Shown piece after piece: positions 39,772 through 64,000 of a DNA stretch of 64,000 nt (position 1 is its first letter; every line of letters begins with the position of its first letter). The notes under the pieces are model-generated. The model was not told the DNA's origin and ran no database searches. It saw only the letters and a program-made list of their open reading frames with translations. The stretch lies in NCBI GenBank assembly GCA_002269645.1, contig NIVC01000033.1:988689-1052688 (forward strand). The letters run 5' to 3'. A program made the translations under genes and the position numbers. The DNA comes from Macrostomum lignano (lineage: Eukaryota).

Positions 39772-40295
39772 TAGCCATGGTAATATTCTAGTTGCTATGC
39801 GGCTGGTGCACCTGTAGCCATGGTAATATTCTAGTTGCTATGCGGCTGCTGCACCTGTAGCCATGGTGATATTCAAGTTGCTATGCGGCTGCTGCACCTG
39901 TAGCCATGGTAATATTCTAGTTGCTATGCGGCTGCTGCACCTGTAGCCATGGTAATATTCTAGTTGCTATGCGGCTGCTGCACCTGTAGCCATGGTAATA
40001 TTCTAGTTGCTATGCGGCTGGTGCACCCGTAGCCATGGTGATATTCTAGTTGCTATGCGGCTGGTGCACCTGTAGCCATGGTGATATTCAAGTTGCTATG
40101 CGGCTGGTGCACCTGTATCCATGATGATATTCAAGTTGCTATGCGGCTGGTGCACCTGTATCCATGGTGATATTCAAGTTGCTATGCGGCTGCTGCACCT
40201 GTAGCCATGGTAATATTCTAGTTGCTATGCGGCTGCTGCACCTGTAGCCATGGTGATATTCAAGTTGCTATGCGGCTGCTGCACCTGTAGCCATG
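39772..40295. repeat. 43-bp minisatellite, left part (interrupted by the LTR element)
   Basis: TAGCCATGGTAATATTCTAGTTGCTATGCGGCTGSTGCACCTG, about 12 copies. Confidence 0.93.
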
Positions 40296-41195
40296 TGTAG
40301 TGCATGCGCCCTTGTCAGTTGGCAGGGCGCGTTGCACTTTGGGGCTGGTTGGGGGGGTTGGCGGGCGTGGCAGGGTTTGGCCGCCGGCCGGGCTTTGCGC
40401 GTGCCCCTCCCCAGCCGTGCCCCTGCCCCGTGCTCAGGGCTGGTTGGCTGCGGCCGGGCCAGCTTTGGCGCGGGTGCTGCCCCTCCACCCTTAGGCGGGG
40501 TTTTGATTGGCTGGGCCGGCGTGGTTTGTTTTGGTGAGCTTAGCCGGTGGGGCCGTCTGCCCCAGGGTTTGGGTGCTATTTATGGTGCGACTCTGGCTCT
40601 TGCCCACCACCTGCGTGCTTTTTGTGTTTTGGTGTGCTCCGAGAGTGCAAGCGCGAGACCTGATAAAAGAAACAGCAACATTAGCTACTTCGATAAAAGA
40701 AACAGCAACATTAGCTACTTCGATAAAAGAAACACAATAGCCTAATTGAGAAGAGTCTTGGAGAATTAAGAAGAAGTCGGAAACTGCGCTTGAGACCTGC
40801 GAATAATAAACGGTGAACAGTCATCTGGCCGCTGGTAAGCCGCCTGCTGTTTGAGTCCTTTCTTTTCGGGAAGCTTGCTAGGCCGAATTCTTGCCAGAGC
40901 GTCATAACGCCGGGAGACCATATAGCTTCTGTAGTACGGTACCGTTTACCATATATATTGCGTACGCCCTACGGTATAGAGAATAGAAGCACTCGAGAGT
41001 GTCACCACACCTCGAGCCGCAGCGTGAACTCTGAGTGTCACAACACCAGAGGGATCGAATTATTATCGCAGAGCGTCGCCACGCCTGCTCGTCGTATTCA
41101 TAAAAGTACAGACAGAGCGTCACAACGCCTGTTATATCACATATAATATATATTGTACTCGGGACTGGGCACCCAAGCCGACCCGGGTTACAACA
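40296..41195 (+). repeat. 5' LTR (900 bp)
   Basis: Starts TGTAG right after the TSD and ends ACAACA 3 nt before the PBS. Its last 43 bp recur identically at 49147-49189. Confidence 0.85.
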
Positions 41196-41198
41196 AAT

Positions 41199-41216
41199 TG
41201 GCGCCCGAACAGGGAC
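41199..41216 (+). other. Primer binding site for tRNA-Lys(UUU)
   Basis: TGGCGCCCGAACAGGGAC is the 18-nt complement of the tRNA-Lys3 3' end. Confidence 0.92.
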
Positions 41217-41440: not shown

Positions 41441-42361
41441 ATGGGTGATCAAGCTATGGACCAACTGATCGATGCGCTGGCTGCGCGCCTCAGAGCCAAC
41501 GCCGACCGAGCAGCGCCACGACTCTCGAAGCCGCCCAAGTACATACCAACGATGAATTTCAGCCTATGGCTGCAGAGTTTCAACGAGTACTGCGAGGCTG
41601 TCGGTATAGAAGAAGAAGCCAGGCGGCCGCACCTGATCGGCCTACTCGACCTCACAACAGCCTACGCTGCCGTTGATAAGCTGGACTTGGCAGACGACAT
41701 CGAGTACGGGGAATTCACGGATACACTGCTGGCGCGGTTCACCATGAACAGAACAGCCCAGGACTACCGTTTTGAATTATCGAATCGAGATCAGCTAGAC
41801 AAGGAGTCTGTGGAGACCTACGGGGACGAGCTGCTGGAGTTGGTGCGCAATGCCTTCCCCACCGCGGATGCCGACACCAGGACAGAGCTGGCGAAAGACA
41901 GATTTCTAAAAGGCGTTCGAGTAACCGACACTGTCCGAGAAAGACTGTACCTGCAGCAGCCGGCCAACCTCACCGATGCCATTCGAACAGTAAGACAACT
42001 TGAAGCAGCCCAGAAGGCGTCTTCGACCCAGTCCAAAGCCAGACCCAGGGCTGGGCTGAATGCCTTTGCCACCGAAACGTCGACAGGTGACACCGGCAAA
42101 GACGAGGAGCTACGGCAACTGCGTCAAAAAGTAAAGGAAATGGAAGAAAAGATCCGACGGATGGAGCAGATCCAGCAGGGCCAGCAGGAGCCGCCCGAAC
42201 CCGGTCTTCAAGACAAGCAACAATCCAAGCAGGCGGCTCCGTCCAGCTCGAAGCAGCGTAGCGGTGTCAAGTGCTACAACTGCGGGGAGATAGGCCATCT
42301 CTCATTCCAGTGCCCAAAGCCGGGAAAAGGCAAGAGGGGCCCACCAGCTGGAGGCAAGTGA
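41441..42361 (+). CDS. gag: Gag with CCHC zinc knuckle
   Basis: Open ORF from ATG 41441; CYNCGEIGHLSFQC (CX2CX4HX4C); capsid-like segment Q...ESVETYGDELLELVRNAFP. Confidence 0.92.
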   Translation: MGDQAMDQLIDALAARLRANADRAAPRLSKPPKYIPTMNFSLWLQSFNEYCEAVGIEEEARRPHLIGLLDLTTAYAAVDKLDLADDIEYGEFTDTLLARFTMNRTAQDYRFELSNRDQLDKESVETYGDELLELVRNAFPTADADTRTELAKDRFLKGVRVTDTVRERLYLQQPANLTDAIRTVRQLEAAQKASSTQSKARPRAGLNAFATETSTGDTGKDEELRQLRQKVKEMEEKIRRMEQIQQGQQEPPEPGLQDKQQSKQAAPSSSKQRSGVKCYNCGEIGHLSFQCPKPGKGKRGPPAGGK

Positions 42362-43596
42362 GCCCCTGCAATTCGTCAGCCTCCGAACAAGCCGTCATCT
42401 CATCTCATCATCATCAAACGCCCGGTACCGCATCTCATCAGCCTCCAGTGTCCGGTACTTCATCTCATCAGCTTCCAGTGTCCGGTACAGTGCCTCATCA
42501 GCATCCAGTGTCCGGTACTTCATCTCATCAGCCTCCAGTGTCCGGTACTGCGCCTCATCAGCATCCAGTGTCCGGTACTGCGCCTCATCAGCATTCAGTG
42601 TCCGGTACTGCGCCTCATCAGCCTCCAGCGTCCGGTACAGCGTCTCATCAGCCTCCAGTGTCCGGTACTGTGTCTCATCAGCATCCAGTGTCCGGTACAG
42701 TGCCTCATCAGCCTCCAGTGTCCGGTACTGCGCCTCATCAGCCTACAGTGTCCGGTACTGAGTCTCATCAGCATCCAGTGTCCGGTACTGCGTCTCATCA
42801 GCATCCAGTGTCCGGTACTGCGGCTCATCAGCATCCAGTGTCCGGTACTGCGCCTCATCAGCATCCAGTGCCCGGTACAGCGTCTCATCAGCCTCCAGTG
42901 TCCGGTACTGTGTCTCATCAGCATCCAGTGTCCGGTACAGTGCCTCATCAGCCTCCAGCGTCCGGTACTGCACCTCACCATCAACTAGCCGGTTTTGCAC
43001 AGTCGCAGCGCCCAATCACCGTCAACGCACCTCAGTCAATTCAAATCAATCCTGCGTCGATATATGTTACGGCCTCAATCGCAGGGCGGAGGGTGAACGC
43101 GCTAGTGGACTCGGGAGCTTCCTGCACCATTATCTCACGGGAAGCCTACCAAAGTATGCCGAAACAGAGCGTCAGAGATTTGGCCGGTGCTGAAGGCTAT
43201 GTTAGCTTAGCAAACGGCAGCCCGATCGAAATCGAGAGAACAGTCCTGTTGCGACTGTCAATCGCTGATAAAGTAATAGATACTCCAGCCTTGGTAGTCA
43301 GCGGAGTGAAGTACCAACTGGTATTGGGATCCGACTTCTGCAGGGACAACAGTTGCGTCATCGACTACAAGACAGCTGTCTTTTCAGTGCAGGACACTGC
43401 AATCCCGTTCCGATGGCAAGCTGAGCGCCCGATCGTTTGCAGAATTTTGGCGACAAGGTCCAGCACAATACCGCCAGGTCATCAAGCAGTTCTGTCAGCA
43501 AGGCTGGAGAGCAAAGGACGACGGAACAGAGGGTGTGTCGGTCTAACTGAGAAGCGAACGATTTGGCAGCTGGCCGCTGGCTTGCTAAGGCCTTAG
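42271..43596 (+). CDS. pro: Aspartic protease ORF (-1 frame relative to gag) with a 10-aa repeat insert
   Basis: ALVDSGASCTII catalytic motif and LVLGSDFC flap-side motif; overlaps the end of gag. Confidence 0.88.
   Translation: MLQLRGDRPSLIPVPKAGKRQEGPTSWRQVSPCNSSASEQAVISSHHHQTPGTASHQPPVSGTSSHQLPVSGTVPHQHPVSGTSSHQPPVSGTAPHQHPVSGTAPHQHSVSGTAPHQPPASGTASHQPPVSGTVSHQHPVSGTVPHQPPVSGTAPHQPTVSGTESHQHPVSGTASHQHPVSGTAAHQHPVSGTAPHQHPVPGTASHQPPVSGTVSHQHPVSGTVPHQPPASGTAPHHQLAGFAQSQRPITVNAPQSIQINPASIYVTASIAGRRVNALVDSGASCTIISREAYQSMPKQSVRDLAGAEGYVSLANGSPIEIERTVLLRLSIADKVIDTPALVVSGVKYQLVLGSDFCRDNSCVIDYKTAVFSVQDTAIPFRWQAERPIVCRILATRSSTIPPGHQAVLSARLESKGRRNRGCVGLTEKRTIWQLAAGLLRP
42422..42983 (+). repeat. 30-bp in-frame tandem repeat (VSGTAPHQHP) inside the retrotransposon pro ORF
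   Basis: About 19 copies. Confidence 0.92.
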
Positions 43597-46500
43597 TGAT
43601 CCCAAATAGCGGCAGCCGTCTGCCGACTCGACTCATCAATATCACGGAAGAGCCAGTCAGAATTCGCCAAGGTTGTACGCTCGGGTGGTTCTGCCCCCTA
43701 GAATCCACCGAACCGTTGAACACCATCAAGCTCTTAGCCGTAGAGTCAGGAGACGATCCACAGGAAGAGCCGAAGGTCCAAGGCAGCAACAGCCCTTCGG
43801 AAGCAGACTTGCTACCAAACTCGTACGGCGACTGTGGACTGTCGACGAAAGAAGACGAAGAATTTAGAATCCTTGTCCGGAGTTACAGCGATGTGTTCAC
43901 GACCAAGCAGACTTCAAGCAAGTTAACTACCGTGGTGGAGCATGAAATTAACACCGAGAATGCGCGCCCAATCAAGATCCCACCGCGTCGTCTGCCTCCC
44001 CACTTACAGCCAGAAGTAGATCGTCAAGTCAATGAGTTGCTGGAAAAGGGGCAGATCGAAGAAGCACAGTCACCATGGTGCTTTCCTTTGGTGTGCGTAA
44101 AGAAGAAATCAGGGGAAATGAGGATGTGCGTCGATTATCGGAAGTTGAATGAGGTCACCGTCAAGGATGCAGTGCCGATGCCGAGGGTCGATGATGCGCT
44201 GGAGGCAGTACACGGCGCCAAGATCTTCTCGACAATGGACCTTCACAGCGGGTTTTGGCAAGTAGGGGTGAGACCTCAGGATCAGGACAAGACGGCGTTT
44301 GCAGTGCCGCATCGCGGACAATTTCGATGGAAGGTTATGCCGTTCGGCTTAGTGAACAGCCCAGCAACATTCACCAGGTTGATGGCAGCCGTTCTGGACA
44401 AGCAGATGTGGAAAACCTGTCTCGTCTACATCGACGATCTACTGGTTTGGTCAACCGACGTGGATGAACACCTGAGAAGACTGGAGGAAATATTCAGCAA
44501 GTTGCGGCAAGCAAATTTGTGCCTGAAGCCCCAGAAGTGTCACTTTTTGCAAAAGCAAGTGAAATTTCTCGGTCACACGCTGTCGGCTGCTGGCATCAGT
44601 ACCGATGAGGAGAAAGTTCAAAAAGTGAAGAACTGGCCAACACCGCGATCCTCGACGGAGCTGCATTCATTCTTGGGCCTGTGTGGCTATTACAGAAAGT
44701 TTATTAAAGATTTCGCCGCAATAGCAGCGCCTCTAACTCGATTGACAACAAAAGACGCAAAGTTTGAATGGAAAACGGAACAGCAGCTGGCGTTCGAAAC
44801 ATTGAAGGAACGAATGACAAGTTCAGAGGTTATGGCTCATCCGGATTTCTCCCCGGATGCCGGAGAGTTTATCCTCGATACTGATGGCAGTTCGAAGATG
44901 GGCATAGGAGCGGTACTTTCTCAAGTCCAGCCAGATGGAGCAGAACGAGTGATCGCCTATGGGTCCAAGACACTAAATCAAGCCGAACGCAACTATTGTA
45001 CGACTCGTTTAGAACTACTAGCGGTTGTGACTTTCATCATGAAGTTCAGATACTATCTGCTTGGAAAAGCGTTCTGTCTGCGAACGGACCACAGCAGCCT
45101 GCAATGGTTAAAAAACTTCAGTGACGCCGAGGGACAGGTTGCTCGCTGGTTGGAGAAGTTGGCTCCATTTCAGTACCGCATCGTTCACAGACCAGGTCGA
45201 TCGCATGGCAACGCGGACGCAATGTCGAGGAAGCCAGTACGGAGACATTTCGGAGCGGAGACATGCCCGGCATGTGCGCAACATCCAGAAGGACTAAATG
45301 CAGTCGAATTTGAACGATTCTCAGCCGGCAATCTGGCAAGCGAGCAGGATCAAGACGACGATTTGAGAACAGTAAAGGAAGCGCTTGGCTCAAACCCAGT
45401 TCCAGATAAAAGCGAGACAGCTTGGAGTCCACTGGCTAGAGCCGTCTGGACTCGAAAAGACGACCTGGTGCTGCAAGAGAACGTGCTCCTTGTGAGAAAC
45501 AAAGACAGGCGCGATGAGTATCAAATGGTGCTGCCACGAAAGGCATTGGATCGTATCTTGAAAACCCTACACGAGAGAGTGGGAGGTGGCCACATGGGCT
45601 TTGCGAAGACAAAATTTAAAGTGCTTCAGCGCTACTGGCGTCCAGGATTGTCTCGTGCCATTGAAGAATATATTCGCGGTTGTGCCACCTGCTGCAAGTC
45701 AAAGCCGGGCAAGCGAAACCGAGCACCCCTGCAACCGTTGACATTCGCAGCACCATTCGATTGCGTCATGATGGACATTGTCGGGCCGCTACCGCGGAGT
45801 AAGGCTGGAAACATTTATCTCCTGACAGTCCAAGATTCGTTTACGAAGTGGCCTGACGCGTACCCGCTTCGCAACCAGAAGGCAAGGACGGTGGCAAGGG
45901 CGCTTTTCAATCGATGGATTAGCCAGCATGGGTGTCCGAGTACTTTGCACAGCGACCAAGGAAGAAACTTCGAATCGCAAGTGATGCGCGAAATGTGCAG
46001 GATACTCGAGATCCGCAAGTCCAGAACAACAGCTTATCATCCGAGCGGAAATGGACAAGTAGAAAACTTCAATAAAAGTTTAAAATCCATCCTCAAGTGC
46101 TGCCTAGAGGACTCAGGACGAAACGACTGGGAAGAATTCGTCAGCTCTGCGTTAATGGCGTACCGATCAAGCGTGCATCGAGCAACGGGTTATACTCCCC
46201 ACTACATGGTCTATGGCACGGAGATGCGCCTACCGATAGACTTGACTGACCAGCCGCCACAGCCTGTCGATTCGCATGTAAATTTCGTCAAGGAGCTAGA
46301 AGACAAATTGCAGACAGCTCATCGCGCTGCTCGACAGCAGTTGAATACTTATCAGCGGCGACAGAAGGACCAGTACGATAAAAGAACCCGAGGATCCGAT
46401 ATTCAGGAGGGTGACCATGTCTTCGTCTACAGCCCCGCCCTGAAACCAGACGAAGCCGCAAAGTTTCACGTAAGCTGGCTCGGCCCAGTGAAGGTGCTCG

Positions 46501-46871
46501 AAAGAAGATCCGAGGTGCTCTTCAAAGTGGAAAACCCGTCAAATCGTAAAAAGTCGAAGTTCGTCCACTTCAACAACCTCCGGAAGTTCGCTCGACCGGC
46601 CGCCCTGGAAACACCAGTTAGGACCGCGGCACCGCCGGAAGTGGTCGACGAGACGGACTCGGAGGCAGATGCGGAAGGCGAGACTTGGACTCGGCCTCAA
46701 CTGATGCCGCCACAGGACGCTGAGGAAGTCGCCGAGGTGCTGGAAGAGCAGATGGAGTTGGTTGACGACCCGCAGCCTACTCATAACCCGGTGGAAGCTG
46801 CACCTGAGCCTCGAAGGTCCGGAAGGTTGCGACGGCCGCCGGATCGCTATGGCCAGCCAGTGACATTCTAA
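43563..46871 (+). CDS. pol: Pol: RT, RNase H, integrase
   Basis: RT motifs RMCVDYRKLN, MPFGLVNSPATF and YIDD; RNase H motifs LDTDGS, ELLAVV and TDHSSL; integrase H..H..C..C, MDIVGP, HSDQGRNF and GQVE, with a GPF/Y-type tail. Confidence 0.96.
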   Translation: MAAGRWLAKALVIPNSGSRLPTRLINITEEPVRIRQGCTLGWFCPLESTEPLNTIKLLAVESGDDPQEEPKVQGSNSPSEADLLPNSYGDCGLSTKEDEEFRILVRSYSDVFTTKQTSSKLTTVVEHEINTENARPIKIPPRRLPPHLQPEVDRQVNELLEKGQIEEAQSPWCFPLVCVKKKSGEMRMCVDYRKLNEVTVKDAVPMPRVDDALEAVHGAKIFSTMDLHSGFWQVGVRPQDQDKTAFAVPHRGQFRWKVMPFGLVNSPATFTRLMAAVLDKQMWKTCLVYIDDLLVWSTDVDEHLRRLEEIFSKLRQANLCLKPQKCHFLQKQVKFLGHTLSAAGISTDEEKVQKVKNWPTPRSSTELHSFLGLCGYYRKFIKDFAAIAAPLTRLTTKDAKFEWKTEQQLAFETLKERMTSSEVMAHPDFSPDAGEFILDTDGSSKMGIGAVLSQVQPDGAERVIAYGSKTLNQAERNYCTTRLELLAVVTFIMKFRYYLLGKAFCLRTDHSSLQWLKNFSDAEGQVARWLEKLAPFQYRIVHRPGRSHGNADAMSRKPVRRHFGAETCPACAQHPEGLNAVEFERFSAGNLASEQDQDDDLRTVKEALGSNPVPDKSETAWSPLARAVWTRKDDLVLQENVLLVRNKDRRDEYQMVLPRKALDRILKTLHERVGGGHMGFAKTKFKVLQRYWRPGLSRAIEEYIRGCATCCKSKPGKRNRAPLQPLTFAAPFDCVMMDIVGPLPRSKAGNIYLLTVQDSFTKWPDAYPLRNQKARTVARALFNRWISQHGCPSTLHSDQGRNFESQVMREMCRILEIRKSRTTAYHPSGNGQVENFNKSLKSILKCCLEDSGRNDWEEFVSSALMAYRSSVHRATGYTPHYMVYGTEMRLPIDLTDQPPQPVDSHVNFVKELEDKLQTAHRAARQQLNTYQRRQKDQYDKRTRGSDIQEGDHVFVYSPALKPDEAAKFHVSWLGPVKVLERRSEVLFKVENPSNRKKSKFVHFNNLRKFARPAALETPVRTAAPPEVVDETDSEADAEGETWTRPQLMPPQDAEEVAEVLEEQMELVDDPQPTHNPVEAAPEPRRSGRLRRPPDRYGQPVTF

Positions 46872-46908
46872 TGGGTTACTCGTCATCGTGAAGTCTCATC
46901 AGTTTCAT

Positions 46909-49101
46909 ATGCGATTATCGTTAAAAGCCAGAAAAATATTTCGCGAATGCGTCATTCATCATAAATACGAGTACTTCATCAACGCCCTCAACCTTCGCGA
47001 TCCGCTCTACCGTCCGCCGAAGCGGCCACCGCGGCGCTACTACCGCGCGCTCAGAGCCACCGATACGCAGCGTCGCTTTGCTAGCGCCTTTAACACCGCG
47101 CTGGGCGACAAGCGTGGAAGTGCCGAGTATGCGGAAGTGTGCGCTGCAATCAGAACCGCCGCGGAGCAAGCAGTCCCGATGATGCAGCCGGCTCAACGTG
47201 GGCAGCCGGTCTGGCAGGACGACCCCGCGATTCAGGCAGCGAGGGAAGATCTGGAGAAGCTCCGCTTGAGCAGGCGACCAACCCGCGAGGCAGAGGCAGC
47301 TCTGGCAGCTGTCTACCTGCAGCGCCAACAAGCGGCTGTCGATGACGCCATTCAGGCTGTCTCTGCCGCTGGGCCCGATGCCAGAGGGCGCGTGGCCTGG
47401 TCCGCCATCAACGCTCTGACGGGACGAAAGCGGCGCAATCCGCTGAACCTGGCTGGTGACACGCCGGACGAGCGTAGGAACGAGCTGCGCGAGTTCTTCG
47501 CCGCCATCGTCAACGCGCCGCCACCCCCGCTGCCAGACAGTCTGACGCTGCCGCCGGAGACGCCGCTGCCGGCAGAGGAGAGTTTCAGCGTAGCCCCAGT
47601 CAACGCAGCCGACGTTGTCAAGCTCGCCCAGCAGTCACCGGGCGGGAAAGCGCTGGGTCCGGACGAGGTGCCCATCGAGGCGCTGCGCATCCCCTGTGTG
47701 GCCGCTGAGGTCGCCAGAGTGATGAACCGCGTGCTCTTCGGTGAGGCGGCGCCCAACGAATGGACCACGGCGCACATCGTTGCTGTTCCAAAGAAGCCGG
47801 GCACCACTAGGCTTGAAGACCATCGAGGCATCTGCCTTCAGTCCTGTGCAGCGAAGCTGTTCAACCGGATGCTGCTTTCGCGGTTGCAGCCCGTGCTGGA
47901 TCCGTACCTGCGCCCAGAGCAGAACGGGTTCCGGCCCCATCGCGGCACAGTGGCGCAGATCCTGGCTCTTCGCCGAGTCATCGAGGAGGCGCGGATTCGT
48001 CAGTCGATACTGATTTTAATCTTTATTGATTTCAAGAAGGCATTCGACTCGGTTGTCAGAGCCGTGCTTCCAATGGTGCTCCGCGCGTACAACGTGCCTG
48101 AGCAGCTGATCTCCGCCGTCATGGCGATGTACCGTGATACGACAGCTGCTGTGACAACACCGGACGGCCTATCGGACTCCTTTGAGACATCCTCCGGAGT
48201 GCTTCAGGGAGATACGCTGGCGCCGTTTCTGTTCGTCCTGGTGCTTGACTGGGTGCTGCGGACTGCTCTTCCTACCGACGACGACGGTTTTCTGCTGCAG
48301 CGACGCGTGGGTCGACGTCAACCGGAGAAGCGGCTCAGCGTGCTTGGCTACGCCGACGACCTCGCCCTGCTGTCCTCGACCGTCGAGGGCGCCCAACGGC
48401 AGCTGGACAGGCTGGTTGCCGTTGCGGCGAGTGTCGGCCTGGTGGTCAACACGCAGAAGACCGTTGTGCTCTGCGTGCCGGACGACATCGAGGCTGCAAT
48501 ATTTTGCCGAGGCGCTGACGGGCAGGCGACCGAACTCCCGCGATGTCAGCAGTTCGTCTACCTCGGCGGTCTGGTTCCAGACGCTCGCGAGGACCTGCGA
48601 CGCCGCCGCGGGCTTGCCTGGGCTGCCTTTCGTTCTGTGAGGGCAGTCCTGCAGTCCGAGGCCCTACCGGACCGCCAGAGGGCGGCGCTGTTCCAGGCGG
48701 TAATCGAGACCGTCCTGCTGTACAACGCCGAGACCTGGACGCTGACGGACTCACTCGAACAGCAAGTCGATGCGGCGCACGCTGGTCTGCTGCGCGCCGC
48801 CTTCAACATCGGCGTCGAGCGAGTCACCAACGCGGCACTCTATCGCCGCGCTGGCCTGCCACGTCCAAGTGATCTACTGCGCCGTCGGCGACTCCAGCTC
48901 GCAGGCCATCTCATCCGCGCCGAGTCGTACTGCCCACAGCCGGTGCAGGAGGTGCTGCTGCTCACGCTGCAGGCACCCTACCGGCGAGGTCAAGCGCGAA
49001 CTCGGCGTTATGTCGACTGTCTGCTGGCTGACGCCGGCGCCCCGGACACTGCCGGTGGCGCGGCCTTTGTTCGCGCCCAAGCCATGAAGCGCGCCCTGTG
49101 A
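46909..49101 (+). CDS. Non-LTR (RTE-like) reverse transcriptase ORF lacking endonuclease
   Basis: KALGPDEVP, EQNGFRPHRGT, FIDFKKAFDSV, GVLQGDTLAPFLF, LGYADD, FVYLG and YNAETWTL, all uninterrupted. In-frame ATG at 46909 lies in AT-richer sequence upstream of the LINE-like part. Confidence 0.9.
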   Translation: MRLSLKARKIFRECVIHHKYEYFINALNLRDPLYRPPKRPPRRYYRALRATDTQRRFASAFNTALGDKRGSAEYAEVCAAIRTAAEQAVPMMQPAQRGQPVWQDDPAIQAAREDLEKLRLSRRPTREAEAALAAVYLQRQQAAVDDAIQAVSAAGPDARGRVAWSAINALTGRKRRNPLNLAGDTPDERRNELREFFAAIVNAPPPPLPDSLTLPPETPLPAEESFSVAPVNAADVVKLAQQSPGGKALGPDEVPIEALRIPCVAAEVARVMNRVLFGEAAPNEWTTAHIVAVPKKPGTTRLEDHRGICLQSCAAKLFNRMLLSRLQPVLDPYLRPEQNGFRPHRGTVAQILALRRVIEEARIRQSILILIFIDFKKAFDSVVRAVLPMVLRAYNVPEQLISAVMAMYRDTTAAVTTPDGLSDSFETSSGVLQGDTLAPFLFVLVLDWVLRTALPTDDDGFLLQRRVGRRQPEKRLSVLGYADDLALLSSTVEGAQRQLDRLVAVAASVGLVVNTQKTVVLCVPDDIEAAIFCRGADGQATELPRCQQFVYLGGLVPDAREDLRRRRGLAWAAFRSVRAVLQSEALPDRQRAALFQAVIETVLLYNAETWTLTDSLEQQVDAAHAGLLRAAFNIGVERVTNAALYRRAGLPRPSDLLRRRRLQLAGHLIRAESYCPQPVQEVLLLTLQAPYRRGQARTRRYVDCLLADAGAPDTAGGAAFVRAQAMKRAL

Positions 49102-49150
49102 CGCTGACTTTTACCATCATGACAGCGTATTTTGTTGTTGTTGTTGTTGT
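46990..49150 (+). mobile_element. 5'-truncated RTE-like non-LTR retrotransposon with (TTG)n tail; 5' boundary approximate
   Basis: Non-LTR RT motifs; no AP-endonuclease domain; short 3' UTR followed by (TTG)6 at 49132-49149. Confidence 0.85.
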
Positions 49151-49189
49151 ACTCGGGACTGGGCACCCAAGCCGACCCGGGTTACAACA
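49147..49189 (+). repeat. 3' LTR remnant (43 bp, U5 end)
   Basis: Identical to 41153-41195 and followed by the CATG TSD. Confidence 0.93.
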
Positions 49190-49786
49190 CATGGTAATAT
49201 TCTAGTTGCTATGCGGCTGCTGCACCTGTAGCCATGGTAATATTCTAGTTGCTATGCGGCTGCTGCACCTGTAGCCATGATGATATTCAAGTTGCTATGC
49301 GGCTGCTGCACCTGTAGCCATGGTAATATTCTAGTTGCTATGCGGCTGCTGCACCTGTAGCCATGATGATATTCAAGTTGCTATGCAGCTGCTGCACCTG
49401 TAGCCATGGTAATATTCTAGTTGCTATGCGGCTGGTGCACCCGTAGCCATGGTGATATTCTAGTTGCTATGCGGCTGGTGCACCTGTAGCCATGGTGATA
49501 TTCAAGTTGCTATGCGGCTGGTGCACCTGTATCCATGATGATATTCAAGTTGCTATGCGGCTGGTGCACCCGTAGCCATGGTGATATTCGAGTTGCTATG
49601 CGGCTGGTGCACCTGTATCCATGGTGATATTCGAGTTGCTATGCGGCTGGTGCACCCGTAGCCATGGTGATATTCGAGTTGCTATGCGGCTGGTGCACCT
49701 GTATTCATGGTGTATCCAGGATGATATTCGAGTTGCTATGCGGCTGGTGCACCTGTATCCATGGTGATATTCTAGTTGCTATGCGG
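49190..49786. repeat. 43-bp minisatellite, right part
   Basis: Same unit resumes in register after the TSD; about 14 copies. Confidence 0.93.
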
Positions 49787-50058
49787 CTTTAGGCGCTGCC
49801 CGCAAATCAAGAGCGACGGTGGACCCGCAGCCCAACTGCAGACCCCTGAACAAGCACACGGATGCGCTCACAGCAGGCCGCGAACCCCAAGTTAATTGGG
49901 GCCGGCGGCAGCGCATGGAATCGAACCCGGGGTCTTCGGAGATCGAGTCTGGCGATGCGCTACCGCTGCCAGCTGTCTGCTGGAATTTATCCGCCAATTC
50001 CGAAGGCCTGAAGCGAAGGACTTGCATTCGAACTGTAAACATGCAGTGTTTGATCGAC

Positions 50059-54983: not shown

Positions 54984-55718
54984 TTGGAACATAAAAGCGC
55001 CGCGCCAGACCAATAGACTGCGCCCTAAACACTCGTGAACAGGTCTTCACGTGGTCTATTCACCTGTTGTTCCTGTCTCTTTCGCGCAATTTTCCTGAAT
55101 GAGTTTTGACTATCGGGAGACCCCATTTAGGGTTATACAAAAAACGAATATTTTCGACATCAATTAGATAACACAGCTGTTTTTGAGTAAACTCTAATTT
55201 TGTAGATGCTTCGAATGTTTCCTTCGAAAACTTGCAAGTAGGCCTTGGGAAAAAATTCCTTCCTTCATTTTGGAACTTTCGAAAGTGAGGTTTCATTTCT
55301 TCTTCCTATATACTAATATTGGTCTGTCTCCATTTAGGTATCTGATCTATGCGATTTATTTTAGCGAAACGGCTCAATTCTATGCTGAAAATGAACGAGT
55401 GGAAGAGTCTTTTCCACTCTTTGAAATATCCGGATCCATTCGTCTTCAAATAGACAACTATAAAAAAAAACATGCTCCAAATCGACATGCTAATTCAAAA
55501 GCATGTAATTTAGCTTCAAAACCGTGTTGTCCATTCTAGTCTCAATTGTTCGCACTTACGCTCGTAAATAAGGACGAATATAACCTTTCTCCGCTGCAGC
55601 CGGATTTCAAAACACATTCAAAATCATCATCAAGCACTGCTGCGAAGAGTGCAAGGCAAAAGAAAAAAACGTAACACAGCATCTGAAAGACCCTAAAAAA
55701 GGAACTAAAGAGTTCTTT

Positions 55719-58700
55719 GTGCACTTTTTGCAACACCTAACCGCGTTCAACAAGCTGATCGACTGTTGTACCGCCTGTCACAATGACAGTTGGGACGATA
55801 CTGAAATTGACGAAGAAAAAGCCAAGCCAACGAAATCAACAGACGAAAAAACAACAACTTCGAAACCAATATCCAGAACGACAAGCACTGAACAGGAAAC
55901 TACTGCTTCAACATGGAGCACCCAAGTAAAAAGCGCCACGACACAGACAGTTGAGAGCTCGACCGTGAGTGGCGCGACGCCCAGCAGCGAGGCCGAGACT
56001 GCGAGCACTGCGTCTGCGTCTACTGTTTCCACTGCGGAACCGGAAGCCACAAGCGCCGCCAGTGTCGAGACGCCGAGCGTGAGTGTACCAGAAGCGACAG
56101 GCCCGACATTGAGCACGGAGTCGACACAGACAGTCGAGAGCTCGACCGTGAGTGGCGCGACGCCCAGCAGCGAGGCCGAGACTGCGAGCACTGCGTCTGC
56201 GTCTACTGTTTCCACTGCGGAACCGGAAGCCACAAGCGCCGCCAGTGTCGAGACGCCGAGCGTGAGTGTACCAGAAGCGACAGGCCCGACATTGAGCACG
56301 GAGTCGACACAGACAGTTGAGAGCTCGACCGTGAGTAGCGCGACGCCCAGCAGCGAGGCCGAGACTGCGAGCACTGCGTCTGCGTCTACTGTTTCCACTG
56401 CGGAACCGGAAGCCACAAGCGCCGCCAGTGTCGAGACGACGAGCGTAAGTGTACCAGAAGCGACAGGCCCGACATTGAGCACGGAGTCGACACAGACAGT
56501 TGAGAGCTCGACCGTGAGTGGCGCGACGCCCAGCAGCGAGGCCGAGACTGCGAGCACTGCGTCTGCGTCAACTGTTTCCACTGCGGAACCGGAAGCCACA
56601 AGCGCCGCCAGTGTCGAGACGCCGAGCGTGAGTGTACCAGAAGCGACAGGCCCGACATTGAGCACGGAGTCGACACAGACAGTTGAGAGCTCGACCGTGA
56701 GTGGCGCGACGCCCAGCAGCGAGGCCGAGACTGCGAGCACTGCGTCTGCGTCTACTGTTTCCACTGCGGAACCGGAAGCCACAAGCGCCGCCAGTGTCGA
56801 GACGCCGAGCGTGAGTGTACCAGAAGCGACAGGCCCGACATTGAGCAGGGAGTTGACACAGACAGTTGAGAGCTCGACCGTGAGTGGCGCGACGACCAGC
56901 AGCAAGGCTGAGACTGCGAGCACTGCGTCTGCGTCTACTGTTTCCACTGCGGAACCGGAAGCCACAAGCGCCGCCAGTGTCGAGACGCCGAGCGTGAGTG
57001 TACCAGAAGCGACAGGCCCGACATTGAGCACGGAGTCGACACAGACAGTTGAGAGCTCGACCGTGAGTGGCGCGACGCCCAGCAGCGAGGCCGAGACTGC
57101 GAGCACTGCGTCTGCGTCTACTGTTTCCACTGCGGAACCGGAAGCCACAAGCGCCGCCAGTGTCGAGACGCCGAGCGTAAGTGTACCAGAAGCGACAGGC
57201 CCGACATTGAGCAGGGAGTCGACACAGACAGTCGAGAGCTCGACCGTGAGTGGCGCGACGCCCAGCAGCGAGGCCGAGACTGCGAGCACTGCGTCTGCGT
57301 CTACTGTTTCCACTGCGGAACCGGAAGCCACAAGCGCCGCCAGTGTCGAGACGCCGAGCGTGAGTGTACCAGAAGCGACAGGCCCGACATTGAGCCGGGA
57401 GTCAACGCAGACAGTTGAGAGCTCGACCGTGAGTGGCGCGACGCCCAGCAGCGAGGCTGAGACTGCGAGCACTGCGTCTGCGTCTACTGTTTCCACTGCG
57501 GAACCGGAAGCCACAAGCGCCGCCAGTGTCGAGACGCCGAGCGTGAGTGTACCAGAAGCGACAGGCCCGACATTGAGCACGGAGTCGACACAGACAGTCG
57601 AGAGCTCGACCGTGAGTGGCGCGACGCCCAGCAGCGAGGCTGAGACTGCGAGCACTGCGTCTGCGTCTACTGTTTCCACTGCGGAACCGGAAGCCACAAG
57701 CGCCGCCAGTGTCGAGACGCCGAGCGTGAGTGTACCAGAAGCGACAGGCCCGACATTGAGCACGGAGTCGACACAGACAGTCGAGAGCTCGACCGTGAGT
57801 GGCGCGACGCCCAGCAGCGAGGCCGAGACTGCGAGCACTGCGTCTGCGTCTACTGTTTCCACTGCGGAACCGGAAGCCACAAGCGCCGCCAGTGTCGAGA
57901 CGCCGAGCGTAAGTGTACCAGAAGCGACAGGCCCGACATTGAGCAGGGAGTCGACACAGACAGTTGAGAGCTCGACCGTGAGTGGCGCGACGCCCAGCAG
58001 CGAGGCCGAGACTGCGAGCACTGCGTCTGCGTCTACTGTTTCCACTGCGGAACCGGAAGCCACAAGCGCCGCCAGTGTCGAGACGCCGAGCGTGAGTGTA
58101 CCAGAAGCGACAGGCCCGACATTGAGCAGGGAGTCGACACAGACAGTTGAGAGCTCGACCGTGAGTGGCGCGACGCCCAGCAGCGAGGCCAAGACTGCGA
58201 GAACTGCGTCTGCGTCTACTGTTTCCACTGCGGAACCGGAAGCCACAAGCGCCGCCAGTGTCGAGACGCCGAGCGTGAGTGTACCAGAAGCGACAGGCCC
58301 GACATTGAGCACGGAGTCGACACAGACAGTTGAGAGCTCGACCGTGAGTGGCGCGACGCCCAGCAGCGAGGCCGAGACTGCGAGCACTGCGTCTGCGTCT
58401 ACTGTTTCCACTGCGGAACCGGAAGCCACAAGCGCCGCCAGTGTCGAGACGCCGAGCGTGAGTGTACCAGAAGCGACAGGCCCGACATTGAGCACGGAGT
58501 CGACACAGACAGTCGAGAGCTCGACCGTGAGTGACGCGACGCCCAGCAGCGAGGCCGAGACTGCGAGCACTGCGTCTGCGTCTACTGTTTCCACTGCGGA
58601 ACCGAAAGCCACAAGCGCCGCCAGTGTCGAGACGCCGAGCGTGAGTGTACCAGAAGCGACAGGCCCGACATTGAGCACGGAGTCGACACAGACAGTTGAG

Positions 58701-59690
58701 AGCTCGACCGTGAGTGGCGCGACGTCCAGTAGCGAGGCCGAGACTGCGAGCACTGCGTCTGCGTCTACTGTTTCCAATGCGGAACCGGAAGCCACAAGCG
58801 CCGCCAGTGTCGAGACGCCGAGCGTGAGTGTACCAGAAGCGACAGGCCCGACATTGAGCACGGAGTCGACACAGACAGTCGAGAGCTCGACCGTGAGTGG
58901 CGCGACGCCCAGCAGCGAGGCCGAGACTGCGAGCACTGCGTCTGCGTCTACTGTTTCCACTGCGGAATCGGAAGCCACAAGCGCCGCCAGTGTCGAGACG
59001 CCGAGCGTGAGTGTACCAGAAGCGACAGGCCCGACATTGAGCACGAAGTCGACACAGACAGTCGAGAGCTCGACCGTGAGTGGCGCGACGCCCAGCAGCG
59101 AGGCCGAGACTGCGAGCACTGCGTCTGCGTCTACTGTTTCCACTGCGGAACCGGAAGCCACAAGCGCCGCCAGTGTCGAGACGCCGAGCGTGAGTGTACC
59201 AGAAGCGACAGGCCCGACATTGAGCACGGAGTCGACACAGACAGTCGAGAGCTCGACCGTGAGTGGCGCGACGCCCAGCAGCGAGGCCGAGACTGCGAGC
59301 ACTGCGTCTGCGTCTACTGTTTCCACTGCGGAACCGGAAGCCACAAGCGCCGCCAGTGTCGAGACGCCGAGCGTGAGTGTACCAGAAGCGACAGGCCCGA
59401 CATTGAGCACGAAGTCGACACAGACAGTCGAGAGCTCGACCGTGAGTGGCGCGACGCCCAGCAGCGAGGCCGAGACTGCGAGCACTGCGTCTGCGTCAAC
59501 TGTTTCCACTGCGGAACCGGAAGCCACAAGCGCCGCCAGTGTCGAGACACCGAGTTTGAATGAGACTTCACAATCAGTAACTACGCCAGAAATAGAAACT
59601 GAGAGTTTTACAAGAGTCGGCCAAACTGCACCAAGTAAAGTCGGAGAGGAAAGTACCGTGGAAGAGCCGAAGTACAGCAGAAAGAGACTG
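55719..59690 (+). CDS. Mucin-like Ser/Thr/Ala/Glu/Pro repeat domain, about 20 x 61 aa; repeats continue with indels to the window end; exon start not resolved
   Basis: Long ORF of TQTVESSTVSGATPSSEAETASTASASTVSTAEPEATSAASVETPSVSVPEATGPTLSTES units. The commonest copy-to-copy variants (GTT/GTC, GCC/GCT, GTG/GTA) are synonymous in this frame. Confidence 0.7.
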
Positions 59691-62600
59691 CAGCACTGCG
59701 TCTGCGTCTACTGTTTCCACTGCGGAACCGGAAGCCACAAGCGCCGCCAGTGTCGAGACGCCGAGCGTGAGTGTACCAGAAGCGACAGGCCCGACATTGA
59801 GCACGGAGTCGACACAGACAGTCGAGAGCTCGACCGTAAGTGGCGCGACGCCCAGCAGCGAGGCCGAGACTGCGAGCACTGCGTCTGCGTCTACTGTTTC
59901 CACTGCGGAACCGGAAGCCACAAGCGCCGCCAGTGTCGAGACGCCGAGCGTGAGTGTACCAGAAGCGACAGGCCCGACATTGAGCACGGAGTCGACACAG
60001 ACAGTCGAGAGCTCGACCGTAAGTGGCGCGACGCCCAGCAGCGAGGCCGAGACTGCGAGCACTGCGTCTGCGTCTACTGTTTCCACTGCGGAACCGGAAG
60101 CCACAAGCGCCGCCAGTGTCGAGACGCCGAGCGTGAGTGTACCAGAAGCGACAGGCCCGACATTGAGCACGGAGTCGACACAGACAGTTGAGAGCTCGAC
60201 CGTGAGTGGCGCGACGCCCAGCAGCGAGGCCGAGACTGCGAGCACTGCGTCTGCGTCTACTGTTTCCACTGCGGAACCGGAAGCCACAAGCGCCGCCAGT
60301 GTCGAGACGCCGAGCGTGAGTGTACCAGAAGCGACAGGCCCGACATTGAGCACGGAGTCGACACAGACAGTGAGAGCTCGACCGTGAGTGGCGCGACGCC
60401 CAGCAGCGAGGCCGAGACTGCGAGCACTGCGTCTGCGTCTACTGTTTCCACTGCGGAACCGGAAGCCACAAGCGCCGCCAGTGTCGAGACGCCGAGCGTG
60501 AGTGTACCAGAAGCGACAGGCCCGACATTGAGCACGGAGTCGACACAGACAGGTGAGAGCTCAACCGTGAGTGGCGCGACGCCCAGCAGCGAGGCCAAGA
60601 CTGCGAGCACTGCGTCTGCGTCTACTGTTTCCACTGCGGAACCGGAACCCACAAGCGCCGCCAGTGTCGAGACGCCGAGCGTGAATGACTTCACAATCAG
60701 AACTACGCCAGAATAGAAACTGAGAGTTTTACAGAGTCGAAACTGCACAGTAAAGTCGAGAGGAGTACCGTGGCGAAGACCGAGCAGCAGAGAGACTGCC
60801 AGCACTGCGTCTGCGTCTACTGTTTCCACTGCGGAACGGAAGCCACAAGCGCCGCCAGTGTCGAGACGCCGAGCGTGAGTGTACCAGAAGCGACAGGCCC
60901 GACATTGAGCACGGAGTCGACACAGACAGTCGAGAGCTCGACCGTGAGTGGCGCGACGCCCAGCAGCGAGGCCGAGACTGCGAGCACTGCGTCTGCGTCT
61001 ACTGTTTCCACTGCGGAACCGGAAGCCACAAGCGCCGCCAGTGTCGAGACGCCGAGCGTGAGTGTACCAGAAGCGACAGGCCCGACATTGAGCACGGAGT
61101 CGACACAGACAGTTGAGAGCTCGACCGTGAGTGGCGCGACGCCCAGCAGCGAGGCCGAGACTGCGAGCACTGCGTCTGCGTCTACTGTTTCCACTGCGGA
61201 ACCGGAAGCCACAAGCGCCGCCAGTGTCGAGACGCCGAGCGTGAGTGTACCAGAAGCGACAGGCCCGACATTGAGCACGGAGTCGACACAGACAGTCGAG
61301 AGCTCGACCGTGAGTGGCGCGACGCCCAGCAGCGAGGCCGAGACTGCGAGCACTGCGTCTGCGTCTACTGTTTCCACTGCGGAACCGGAAGCCACAAGCG
61401 CCGCCAGTGTCGAGACCGAGGTGAATGAGCTTCACAATCAGTAACTACGCCAGAATAGAAACGAGAGTTTTACAGAGTCGCCAAACTGACAGTGAAGCTC
61501 GGAGAGGAGTACCCGAAGACGAGCAGCGGAGACTGCAGCACTGCGTCTGCGTCTACTGTTTCCACTGCGGAACCGGAAGCCACAAGCGCCGCCAGTGTCG
61601 AGACGCCGAGCGTGAGTGTACCAGAAGCGACAGGCCCGACATTGAGCACGGAGTCGACACAGACAGTCGAGAGCTCGACCGTGAGTGGCGCGACGCCCAG
61701 CAGCGAGGCCGAGACTGCGAGCACTGCGTCTGCGTCTACTGTTTCCACTGCGGAACCGGAAGCCACAAGCGCCGCCAGTGTCGAGACGCCGAGCGTGAGT
61801 GTACCAGAAGCGACAGGCCCGACATTGAGCACGGAGTCGACACAGACAGTCGAGAGCTCGACCGTGAGTGGCGCGACGCCAGCAGCGAGGCCGAGACTGC
61901 GAGCACTGCGTCTGCGTCTACTGTTTCCACTGCGGAACCGGAAGCCACAAGCGCCGCCAGTGTCGAGACGCCGAGCGTGAGTGTACCAGAAGCGACAGGC
62001 CCGACATTGAGCACGGCGTCGACACAGACAGTCGAGAGCTCGACCGTGAGTGGCGCGACGCCCAGCAGCGAGGCCGAGACTGCGAGCACTGCGTATGCGT
62101 CTACTGTTTCCACTGCGGAACCGGAAGCCACAAGCGCCGCCAGTGTCGAGACGCCGAGCGTGAGTGTACCAGAAGCGACAGGCCCGACATTGAGCACGAA
62201 GTCGACACAGACAGTCGAGAGCTCGACCGTGAGTGGCGCGACGCCCAGCAGCGAGGCCGAGACTGCGAGCACTGCGTCTGCGTCTACTGTTTCCACTGCG
62301 GAACCGGAAGCCACAAGCGCCGCCAGTGTCGAGACGCCGAGCGTGAGTGTACCAGAAGCGACAGGCCCGACATTGAGCACGGAGTCGACACAGACAGTCG
62401 AGAGCTCGACCGTGAGTGGCGCGACGCCCAGCAGCGAGGCCGAGACTGCGAGCACTGCGTCTGCGTCTACTGTTTCCACTGCGGAACCGGAAGCCACAAG
62501 CGCCGCCAGTGTCGAGACGCCGAGCGTGAGTGTACCAGAAGCGACAGGCCGACATTGAGCACGGAGTCGACACAGACAGTGAGAGCTCGACCGTGAGTGG

Positions 62601-64000
62601 CGCGACGCCCAGCAGCGAGGCCGAGACTGCGAGCACTGCGTCTGCGTCTACTGTTTCCACTGCGGAACCGGAAGCCACAAGCGCCGCCAGTGTCGAGACG
62701 CCGAGCGTGAGTGTACACAGAAGCGACAGGCCCGGACACGGAGCGGAGTCACGACAGTAGTGGAGAGAGCTCCCGTGAGCGCGAGCAGCGCGAGGCCGAG
62801 ACTGCAGCACTGCGTCTGCGTCTACTGTTTCCACTGCGGAACCGGAAGCCACAAGCGCCGCCAGTGTCGAGACGCCGAGCGTGAGTGTACAGAAGCGACA
62901 GGCCCGACATTGAGCACGGAGTCGACACAGACAGTGAGAGCTCGACGTGAGTGGCGCGACGCCCAGCAGCGAGGCCGAGACTGCGAGCACTGCGTCTGCG
63001 TCTACTGTTTCCACTGCGGAACCGGAAGCCACAAGCGCCGCCAGTGTCGAGACGCCGAGCGTGAGTGTACCAGAAGCGACAGGCCCGACATTGAGCACGG
63101 AGTCGACAACAGACAGTGAGAGCTCGACCGTGAGTGGCGCGACGCCCAGCAGCGAGGCCGAGACTGCGAGCACTGCGTCTGCGTCTACTGTTTCCACTGC
63201 GGAACCGGAAGCCACAAGCGCCGCCAGTGTCGAGACGCCGAGCGTGAGTGTACCAGAAGCGACAGGCCCGACATTGAGCACGGAGTCGACACAGACAGTG
63301 AGAGCTCGACCGTGAGTGGCGCGACGCCAGCAGCGAGGCCGAGACTGCGAGCACTGCGTCTGCGTCTACTGTTTCCACTGCGGAACCGGAAGCCACAAGC
63401 GCCGCCAGTGTCGAGACGCCGAGCGTGAGTGTACAGAAGCGACACCCGACATTGAGCACGAGTCAGTCGACACAGACAGTGAGAGCTCAACCGTGAGTGG
63501 CGCGACGCCCAGCAGCGAGGCCGAGACTGCGAGCACTGCGTCTGCGTCTACTGTTTCCACTGCGGAACGGAAGCCACAAGCGCCGCCAGTGTCGAGACGC
63601 CGAGCGTGAGTGTACCACCAGAAACGACGCCCGACATGACTGGAGTCAAGAGTCGAGACTCACCAGTAGAGTGGGAGAGGCCCGCAGGCGAGAGCCGGAG
63701 ACTGCGAGCACTGCGTCTGCGTCTACTGTTTCCACTGCGGAACCGGAAGCCACAAGCGCCGCCAGTGTCGAGACGCCGAGCGTGAGTGTACCAGAAGCGA
63801 CAGGCCCGACATTGAGCACGGAGTCGACACAGACAGTCGAGAGCTCGACCGTGAGTGGCGCGACGCCCAGCAGCGAGGCCGAGACTGCGAGCACTGCGTC
63901 TGCGTCTACTGTTTCCACTGCGGAACCGAAGCCACAAGCGCCCGCCAGTGTCGAGACGCCGGCGTGAGTGTACCAGAAGCGACAGGCCCGACATTGAGCA
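55941..64000 (+). repeat. 183-bp coding tandem repeat with periodic linker
   Basis: Period 183 bp (ACACAGACAG at 55941 and 56124); about 40 copies; linker variants near 59550, 60680 and 61415. Confidence 0.95.

Follow-up and report, generated by a model that had tools for sequence, protein, structure and literature searches.

A truncated LINE in place of the 3' end of a Macrostomum lignano gypsy retrotransposon, and the J-domain reading frame lost from that copy

In a 64-kb stretch of the Macrostomum lignano genome (contig NIVC01000033.1, positions 988,689 to 1,052,688; hereafter the window, whose numbering is used throughout), a long terminal repeat (LTR) retrotransposon of the Ty3/gypsy type carries the reverse transcriptase (RT) end of a long interspersed nuclear element (LINE) where most of its 3' LTR would be expected. 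The structure is a one-off accident of a known kind, as nested LINE insertions with deletion of target DNA are well described. Most probably, the gypsy element was complete when it entered a minisatellite, and about 3 kb at its 3' end afterwards gave way to a young LINE, likely in a single insertion-mediated deletion. The locus is a clean non-mammalian example of a kb-scale LINE-mediated deletion in which the pre-insertion state can be read from 25 sister copies. The deleted DNA matters more. It held a third open reading frame (ORF3), a J-domain gene conserved in several gypsy families.

The window copy and its sisters

The order of events follows from comparison with the 764-Mb assembly in which the junctions were searched. 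Querying with the 3' end of pol yielded 28 candidates, all scored, including 25 near-identical sisters. All 25 run on past pol into their own 3' region without LINE sequence, and two diverged candidates have the start of ORF3 at that place. In the 8 kb fetched for 19 near-identical sisters and one diverged copy, all 19 complete sister 3' ends contain a polypurine tract (PPT) and a 3' LTR of full length. The distance from the junction point to this LTR is 1.84-2.31 kb in 18 of the 19; the remaining one carries a further insertion. The window copy therefore lacks about 2.7-3.2 kb (about 1.84-2.31 kb of internal DNA plus 857 bp of LTR), well above the 860 bp given as a minimum in an earlier sequence-only reading of this DNA. 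As the LTR pairs of the sisters differ by only 0-9 bases, the gypsy family is young.

Both junctions are unique. The 3' junction pattern and, with one mismatch allowed, the 5' junction pattern each match the assembly once, at the window locus, against 121 matches for the native U5 (unique 5') sequence of the LTR. The left flank is present at two further places with 99% and 91% identity (L171/L201 and L172; G000:C3131 and G000:C3132), where the minisatellite is unbroken and continues into the same right flank without LTR or LINE sequence. The two places, both without the element, are duplicated or allelic regions of the assembly. Since the CATG bordering the element is also part of the 43-bp minisatellite hosting it, the length of the target-site duplication (TSD) was checked in the sisters; it is 4 bp in 12 of the 14 with both ends located (19 pairs tried). 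Given the empty sites, the unique junctions and the family-typical TSD, the gypsy element integrated once, complete, and then lost its 3' part. This supports the LINE insertion with deletion after integration that the sequence-only reading had proposed. Its description of the 3' end was also borne out directly: the PPT, U3 (unique 3'), R (repeat) and most of U5 are missing, both element ends and the CATG TSD are intact, and a (TTG)6 tail joins the last 43 bp of the LTR through TTGT.

The features of the window copy are as follows:

39772..40295, no strand: left part of the 43-bp minisatellite array, the host target, uninterrupted at both empty sites
40292..40295, plus strand: left TSD, CATG, 4 bp
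40296..41195, plus strand: 5' LTR, 900 bp, TG...CA, a 94-99% match to sister 3' LTRs with differences mainly in a 30-bp repeat
41199..41216, plus strand: primer-binding site, the same or nearly the same in families B and C
41441..42361, plus strand: gag with a CCHC knuckle (open frames and Pfam)
42262..43596, plus strand: protease frame, not continuous with the RT frame in this copy, the break lying near 43550-43600
43551..46871, plus strand: RT-RNase H-integrase frame in Ty3/gypsy order (Pfam), ending in the pol stop TAA at 46869-46871
46872..46982, plus strand: remnant of the pol-ORF3 spacer, non-coding by comparison with sisters, with the ATG at 46909 of an unconstrained 47-codon frame
46909..49101, plus strand: 730-aa chance fusion frame (spacer plus truncated LINE ORF)
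46983..46985, plus strand: 5' junction, three bases, mismatched once to each parent, and an imperfect TCATC similarity just upstream
46986..49149, plus strand: 5'-truncated young single-ORF LINE encoding an apurinic endonuclease-like (APE) domain and RT when complete (here residues 335-1037 of 1037, 3' untranslated region and TTG tail)
49147..49189, plus strand: last 43 bp of the 3' LTR, equal to 41153-41195 of the 5' LTR; the 4-nt TTGT shared with the LINE tail is part of it
49190..49193, plus strand: right TSD, CATG, 4 bp
49190..49788, no strand: right part of the minisatellite array, then flank as at the empty sites

The order gag, protease, RT, RNase H and integrase, together with LTRs, primer-binding site, PPT and TSD, is that of a Ty3/gypsy element, the PPT and 3' LTR being taken from the sisters as both are lost in the window copy. 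The primer-binding site is presumably of the tRNA-Lys type; no tRNA gene was found within the 64-kb window. Protease and RT lie in different frames in the window copy and in a single open frame in 10 of 16 sisters, and the frame breaks may be real or may be assembly indels. Several tandem repeats were also seen. The 30-bp repeat inside the LTR (40662-40734) ranges from about one to more than 50 units across sister LTRs, and the unit number can differ between both LTRs of a single sister copy. Another 30-bp unit, repeated 19 times at 42403-42971 inside the protease frame, encodes a Pro/His/Ser-rich decapeptide repeat. Outside the element, a 183-bp unit is repeated 44 times at 55939-64000 with a 1535-codon open frame at 55584-60191, and this array may be a repetitive coding exon.

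The truncated LINE and the events behind the junctions

The LINE stretch corresponds to the 3'-terminal 2.16 kb of a young and abundant LINE. A 186-bp query from its 3' end gave 1,889 candidates, and the 40 scored were all 100% identical. The stretch is 99.8-99.95% identical to full-length copies, differing from the full-length candidates by 1-5 bases in 2150 nt. A single 1037-aa ORF is present in six of the seven full-length candidates fetched; Pfam finds only Exo_endo_phos and RVT_1 in it, with no match to RNase H. With one ORF for APE and RT, no RNase H and a microsatellite-like 3' tail, the family has traits of the RTE clade and appears RTE-like. The 5' end of full-length copies consists of 17-bp units in tandem, in arrays that vary greatly in length (L196:1440-1746, L199:535-1835).

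At all 19 other loci fetched with the 5'-junction query, the sequence upstream reads into the final motif of the APE domain. Thus, the RT in the window, correctly described as endonuclease-less from sequence, lacks the domain because the LINE is 5'-truncated. A (TTG)n-type tail closes 30 of 30 LINE copies, the window tail being (TTG)6 at 49132-49149, and 22 of the 30 are truncated at most 1.7 kb from the tail. TSD-like repeats flank 16 of these 22 (two of them in tandem repeats) compared with 11 of 462 mismatched pairs; no such repeat of at least 7 nt was found at the window LINE copy. As in the window, TGTA stands at the border of tail and flank in 7 of 30 copies, counted by eye.

Under the scenario that we consider probable, the LINE endonuclease would have nicked U5 of the 3' LTR, where the (TTG)n tail of the LINE RNA would pair with the TTGT site and prime reverse transcription. 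Synthesis would have halted after about 2.2 kb, and the end of the cDNA, instead of being attached beside the nick, would then have been joined to a break that lay in the pol-ORF3 spacer, 2.7-3.2 kb upstream. Such joining to an upstream break would leave no TSD and remove the intervening DNA. The end state is one in which ORF3, PPT, U3 and R are gone and the LINE 3' end and tail lie intact in U5 with a 4-nt overlap, and it occurs once. One LINE hit in this gypsy family is unremarkable, as the expected number for 26 copies, each of 9 kb, is about 0.6; the estimate is rough, being drawn from the density of candidates, which are not copy numbers.

Several points weigh against insertion with deletion as the full account. 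No junction-spanning read or contig was seen, so that the structure rests on one assembly. Among the contigs listed from four public runs over 46600-49260, none bridges either junction, and at the 5' junction they follow the parental forms; this is evidence neither way, because the same contigs show other letters at six differences of the window copy, and rare variants are dropped. Four pol sites are private to the window copy and base 47781 is unlike all 29 other LINE copies covering it, indicating slight age or assembly error. The 5' junction lacks clean microhomology, with its one mismatch to either parent. Lastly, sequence by itself cannot separate a nick-primed insertion from the patching of an existing break.

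In such a patch, LINE cDNA would have bridged a double-strand break, or a gap left by resection, within the 3' half of the integrated gypsy element, without the endonuclease and again as a single event. The missing TSD, the kb-size loss and the odd bases at the 5' junction would fit, and an endonuclease-independent pathway exists for L1, according to the available text of PMC1920257. The 3' untranslated region and tail are complete in the window, however, and the tail border resembles that of ordinary insertions of the family. Break patches often lose the LINE tail. We therefore regard patching as unlikely.

Less likely still is that two LINEs entered the same gypsy copy, one in the spacer and one in U5, and were later fused by genomic recombination or by collapse in the assembly. 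This would lead to an identical end state in which TSD and flanks are also correct, and copies more than 99.7% identical would recombine or collapse easily; with five variable sites in the LINE, there are too few to see a haplotype switch. It would require two hits in the same orientation within 3 kb at a density of about one candidate per 0.4 Mb, and at neither junction is there a half-TSD matching element sequence. A misassembly of unrelated repeat copies is improbable. Three repeat types do meet at the locus and no data span the junctions, but the two empty sites are collinear with the locus on both sides, and the 4-bp TSD is the right one for the family; a random misjoin would not restore these.

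The sequence-only reading had also allowed for a selected or replicating chimera with two RTs, the LINE RT occupying the position of env or ORF3. What speaks for it is the frame starting at ATG 46909, which lies 37 nt past the pol stop (about 40 had been given) and opens the predicted 730 aa to a TGA at 49099-49101, in frame with the LINE RT. The 5' LTR is intact, so that read-through transcription is possible. Pfam finds only RVT_1 in the frame, and the element-derived part, correctly recognized at its N-terminus, is about 25 codons (46909-46982) instead of 30, with the LINE beginning at 46983-46986.

The ATG is not an ORF3 start. In 23 of 25 sisters it opens a 47-codon frame, which compared with a diverged copy has a proportion of nonsynonymous differences (pN) of 0.118 and of synonymous differences (pS) of 0.096, whereas the adjoining pol end has a pN of 0.058 and a pS of 0.163 (few sites and rough counting in both cases). 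The frame thus behaves as non-coding spacer without constraint. The true ORF3 of the family starts about 380 nt downstream, inside the deletion. Of two ATGs in the spacer, one is open to the junction, and its in-frame joining to the LINE is a matter of chance, one in three; the LINE frame is open because the copy is young and nearly identical to full-length copies. Protease and RT not being in one frame is a further argument against function. The sequence-only reading suggested searching for the junctions at other loci with different TSDs, and the assembly has none. The literature search listed no replicating LTR/LINE chimera with two RTs. A selected or replicating chimera is therefore highly improbable.

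In LTR replication, minus-strand transfer needs the 3' R and plus-strand priming needs the PPT. As it lacks both, the window copy is predicted to be dead. The LINE machinery could in principle move it as read-through RNA; a second 5' junction would then be expected, and none was found elsewhere in the assembly.

ORF3, the reading frame lost from the window copy

The deleted frame is intact in many sisters and was described from one of them:

L056:587-1531 (G000:C3853:8789-9733), sense: ORF3, 315 aa, with N-terminal J-domain, acidic linker and five-helix C-terminal domain; absent from the window copy, where it fell in the deletion between 46985 and 49147

ORF3 is 315 aa in 10 of 19 sisters, longer through read-through in four and shorter in five. 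The J-domain is clear, with a Pfam DnaJ match at E 5.5e-18 and a model that matches solved J-domains with a root-mean-square deviation of about 1 A. The HPD motif is invariant in all five aligned ORF3s and lost by deletion in one further copy (L106). The acidic linker contains I-L-I-S-D-D-D, which we take to be like a SUMO-interacting motif (SIM). The C-terminal domain is modelled with confidence (pLDDT 85), but neither the PDB nor the viral libraries gave a clear fold match for it: the best Z was 9.0, over 46 residues, and Foldseek gave nothing with an E below 0.001. Pfam has no match to it in 12 members. For an X domain of the DnaJ-X type (PF14308), the atlas lead score of 0.77 is within the chance range.

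ORF3 is conserved across several gypsy families. Homologous ORF3s, about 30% identical over their full length, were reached from a protein search of the genome; besides the window family, at least three gypsy families with LTR pairs have them (L100, L104, L107, L173-L175 and others). Of two sets of 20 fetched loci, 12 and 14 have them after pol, the rest being host J-protein genes or fragments without pol, and eight of nine tested loci have paired LTRs. The ratio of nonsynonymous to synonymous substitution rates (dN/dS) is 0.09-0.24 in eight comparisons, with dS saturated in three more. One family (L107:6995-7978), whose primer-binding site is unlike that of the others, encodes a chromodomain between the J-domain and the C-terminal domain (Pfam E 1.4e-12). 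ORF3 also looks to have been exchanged between families as a cassette: L069/L138 (G000:C94:922400-939273) have 92% DNA identity with the window family in pol, and their ORF3 differs at 59% of synonymous sites as compared with 16% for the pol end.

TGCGTCA motifs, which resemble bZIP sites, occur in the pol-ORF3 spacer three times in family A, five times in family C and not in B and D, compared with a shuffled mean below 0.15, a control that overstates their significance as the motifs sit in short tandem repeats. Based on the spacers compared (window 46872-46982, L056:173-586 and L104:6581-7000), they could possibly form an internal promoter. In families A, B and D, the two bases just before the ORF3 ATG are AG. 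No splice to ORF3 was seen; contigs of four runs presumed to be RNA cover the sister pol end and ORF3 without a joint or loose end.

Outside this genome assembly, a profile of the ORF3 C-terminal domain found nine proteins among 1.84 billion. Seven were inspected, two weak multi-stretch matches being left out, and one is a Macrostomum lignano gene model. A further protein search gave, beyond generic J-domains, one full-length relative. The gene model, UniRef100_A0A1I8G8I7, fuses pol pieces of the window family, ORF3 and flanking DNA into a 3375-aa 'J domain-containing protein'. ORF3 is present in the databases but mis-annotated. No paper describing a J-domain ORF carried by an LTR retrotransposon came up in the literature search, whose coverage excluded subscription journals and a 2020 classification paper. 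In a paper on the LTR elements of Macrostomum lignano (PMC12801592), the main text, as far as available, does not contain DnaJ, Hsp40 or J-domain, and in the available supplements DnaJ matches occur only in a gene expression table.

Given the J-domain, the acidic SIM-like linker, the five-helix domain and, in one family, the chromodomain, we give even chances to the proposal that this gypsy lineage encodes its own Hsp70 co-chaperone, through which host Hsp70 would be used for remodelling complexes of silencing or of the particle. The copy in the window would then be a natural derivative without ORF3. That ORF3 may recruit Hsp70 to counter silencing or for particle assembly is what we infer from its domains. 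If ORF3 does recruit Hsp70 to chromatin or to the particle, this would be a new way for retrotransposons to use their host or to evade it.

Comparison with known systems

The event in the window is closest to L1 insertion-mediated deletions. As described in the available text of PMC7058536, these range from 0.5 kb to Mb, with an intact tail, no TSD and 1-5 nt of 5' microhomology in 75%. Like them, the event in the window shows a 5'-truncated LINE whose tail is intact at the 3' breakpoint, lacks a TSD and has a kb-size loss upstream of the priming site. The window event differs in that it involves an RTE-like, TTG-tailed LINE that lies inside another retrotransposon, in a flatworm, and in that the 5' junction has only imperfect similarity and the 4-nt microhomology lies at the tail, in the 3' junction. 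The joining of LINE 5' ends by an annealing route often yields long deletions, as far as the accessible part of PMC4760211 describes it.

Pairing of tail and target is described for RTE elements in the portion of PMC6007223 available to us. The window LINE shares with that clade the single ORF with APE and RT, the absence of an RNase H match, the (GTT)n-type microsatellite tail and the overlap of tail and target. The (GTT)n examples given there are plant elements, and the likeness of the window LINE is one of features.

Bdelloid Juno and Vesta elements resemble the sisters in having, between pol and PPT, a third ORF in sense orientation which encodes no envelope (PMC5408684, in part). The main text of that paper, to the extent available, makes no mention of J-domains or chaperones. 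The bdelloid ORF3 encodes a DEDDy or GDSL protein, whereas in that of the sisters a J-domain is followed by an acidic linker and an unassigned domain of five helices.

Viruses too encode J-domains; in polyomavirus T antigen, for example, an HPD-bearing J-domain is joined to other modules. The gypsy sisters are like polyomavirus in that a mobile element encodes its own J-domain, but they belong to another class of element, and the comparison concerns the J-domain.

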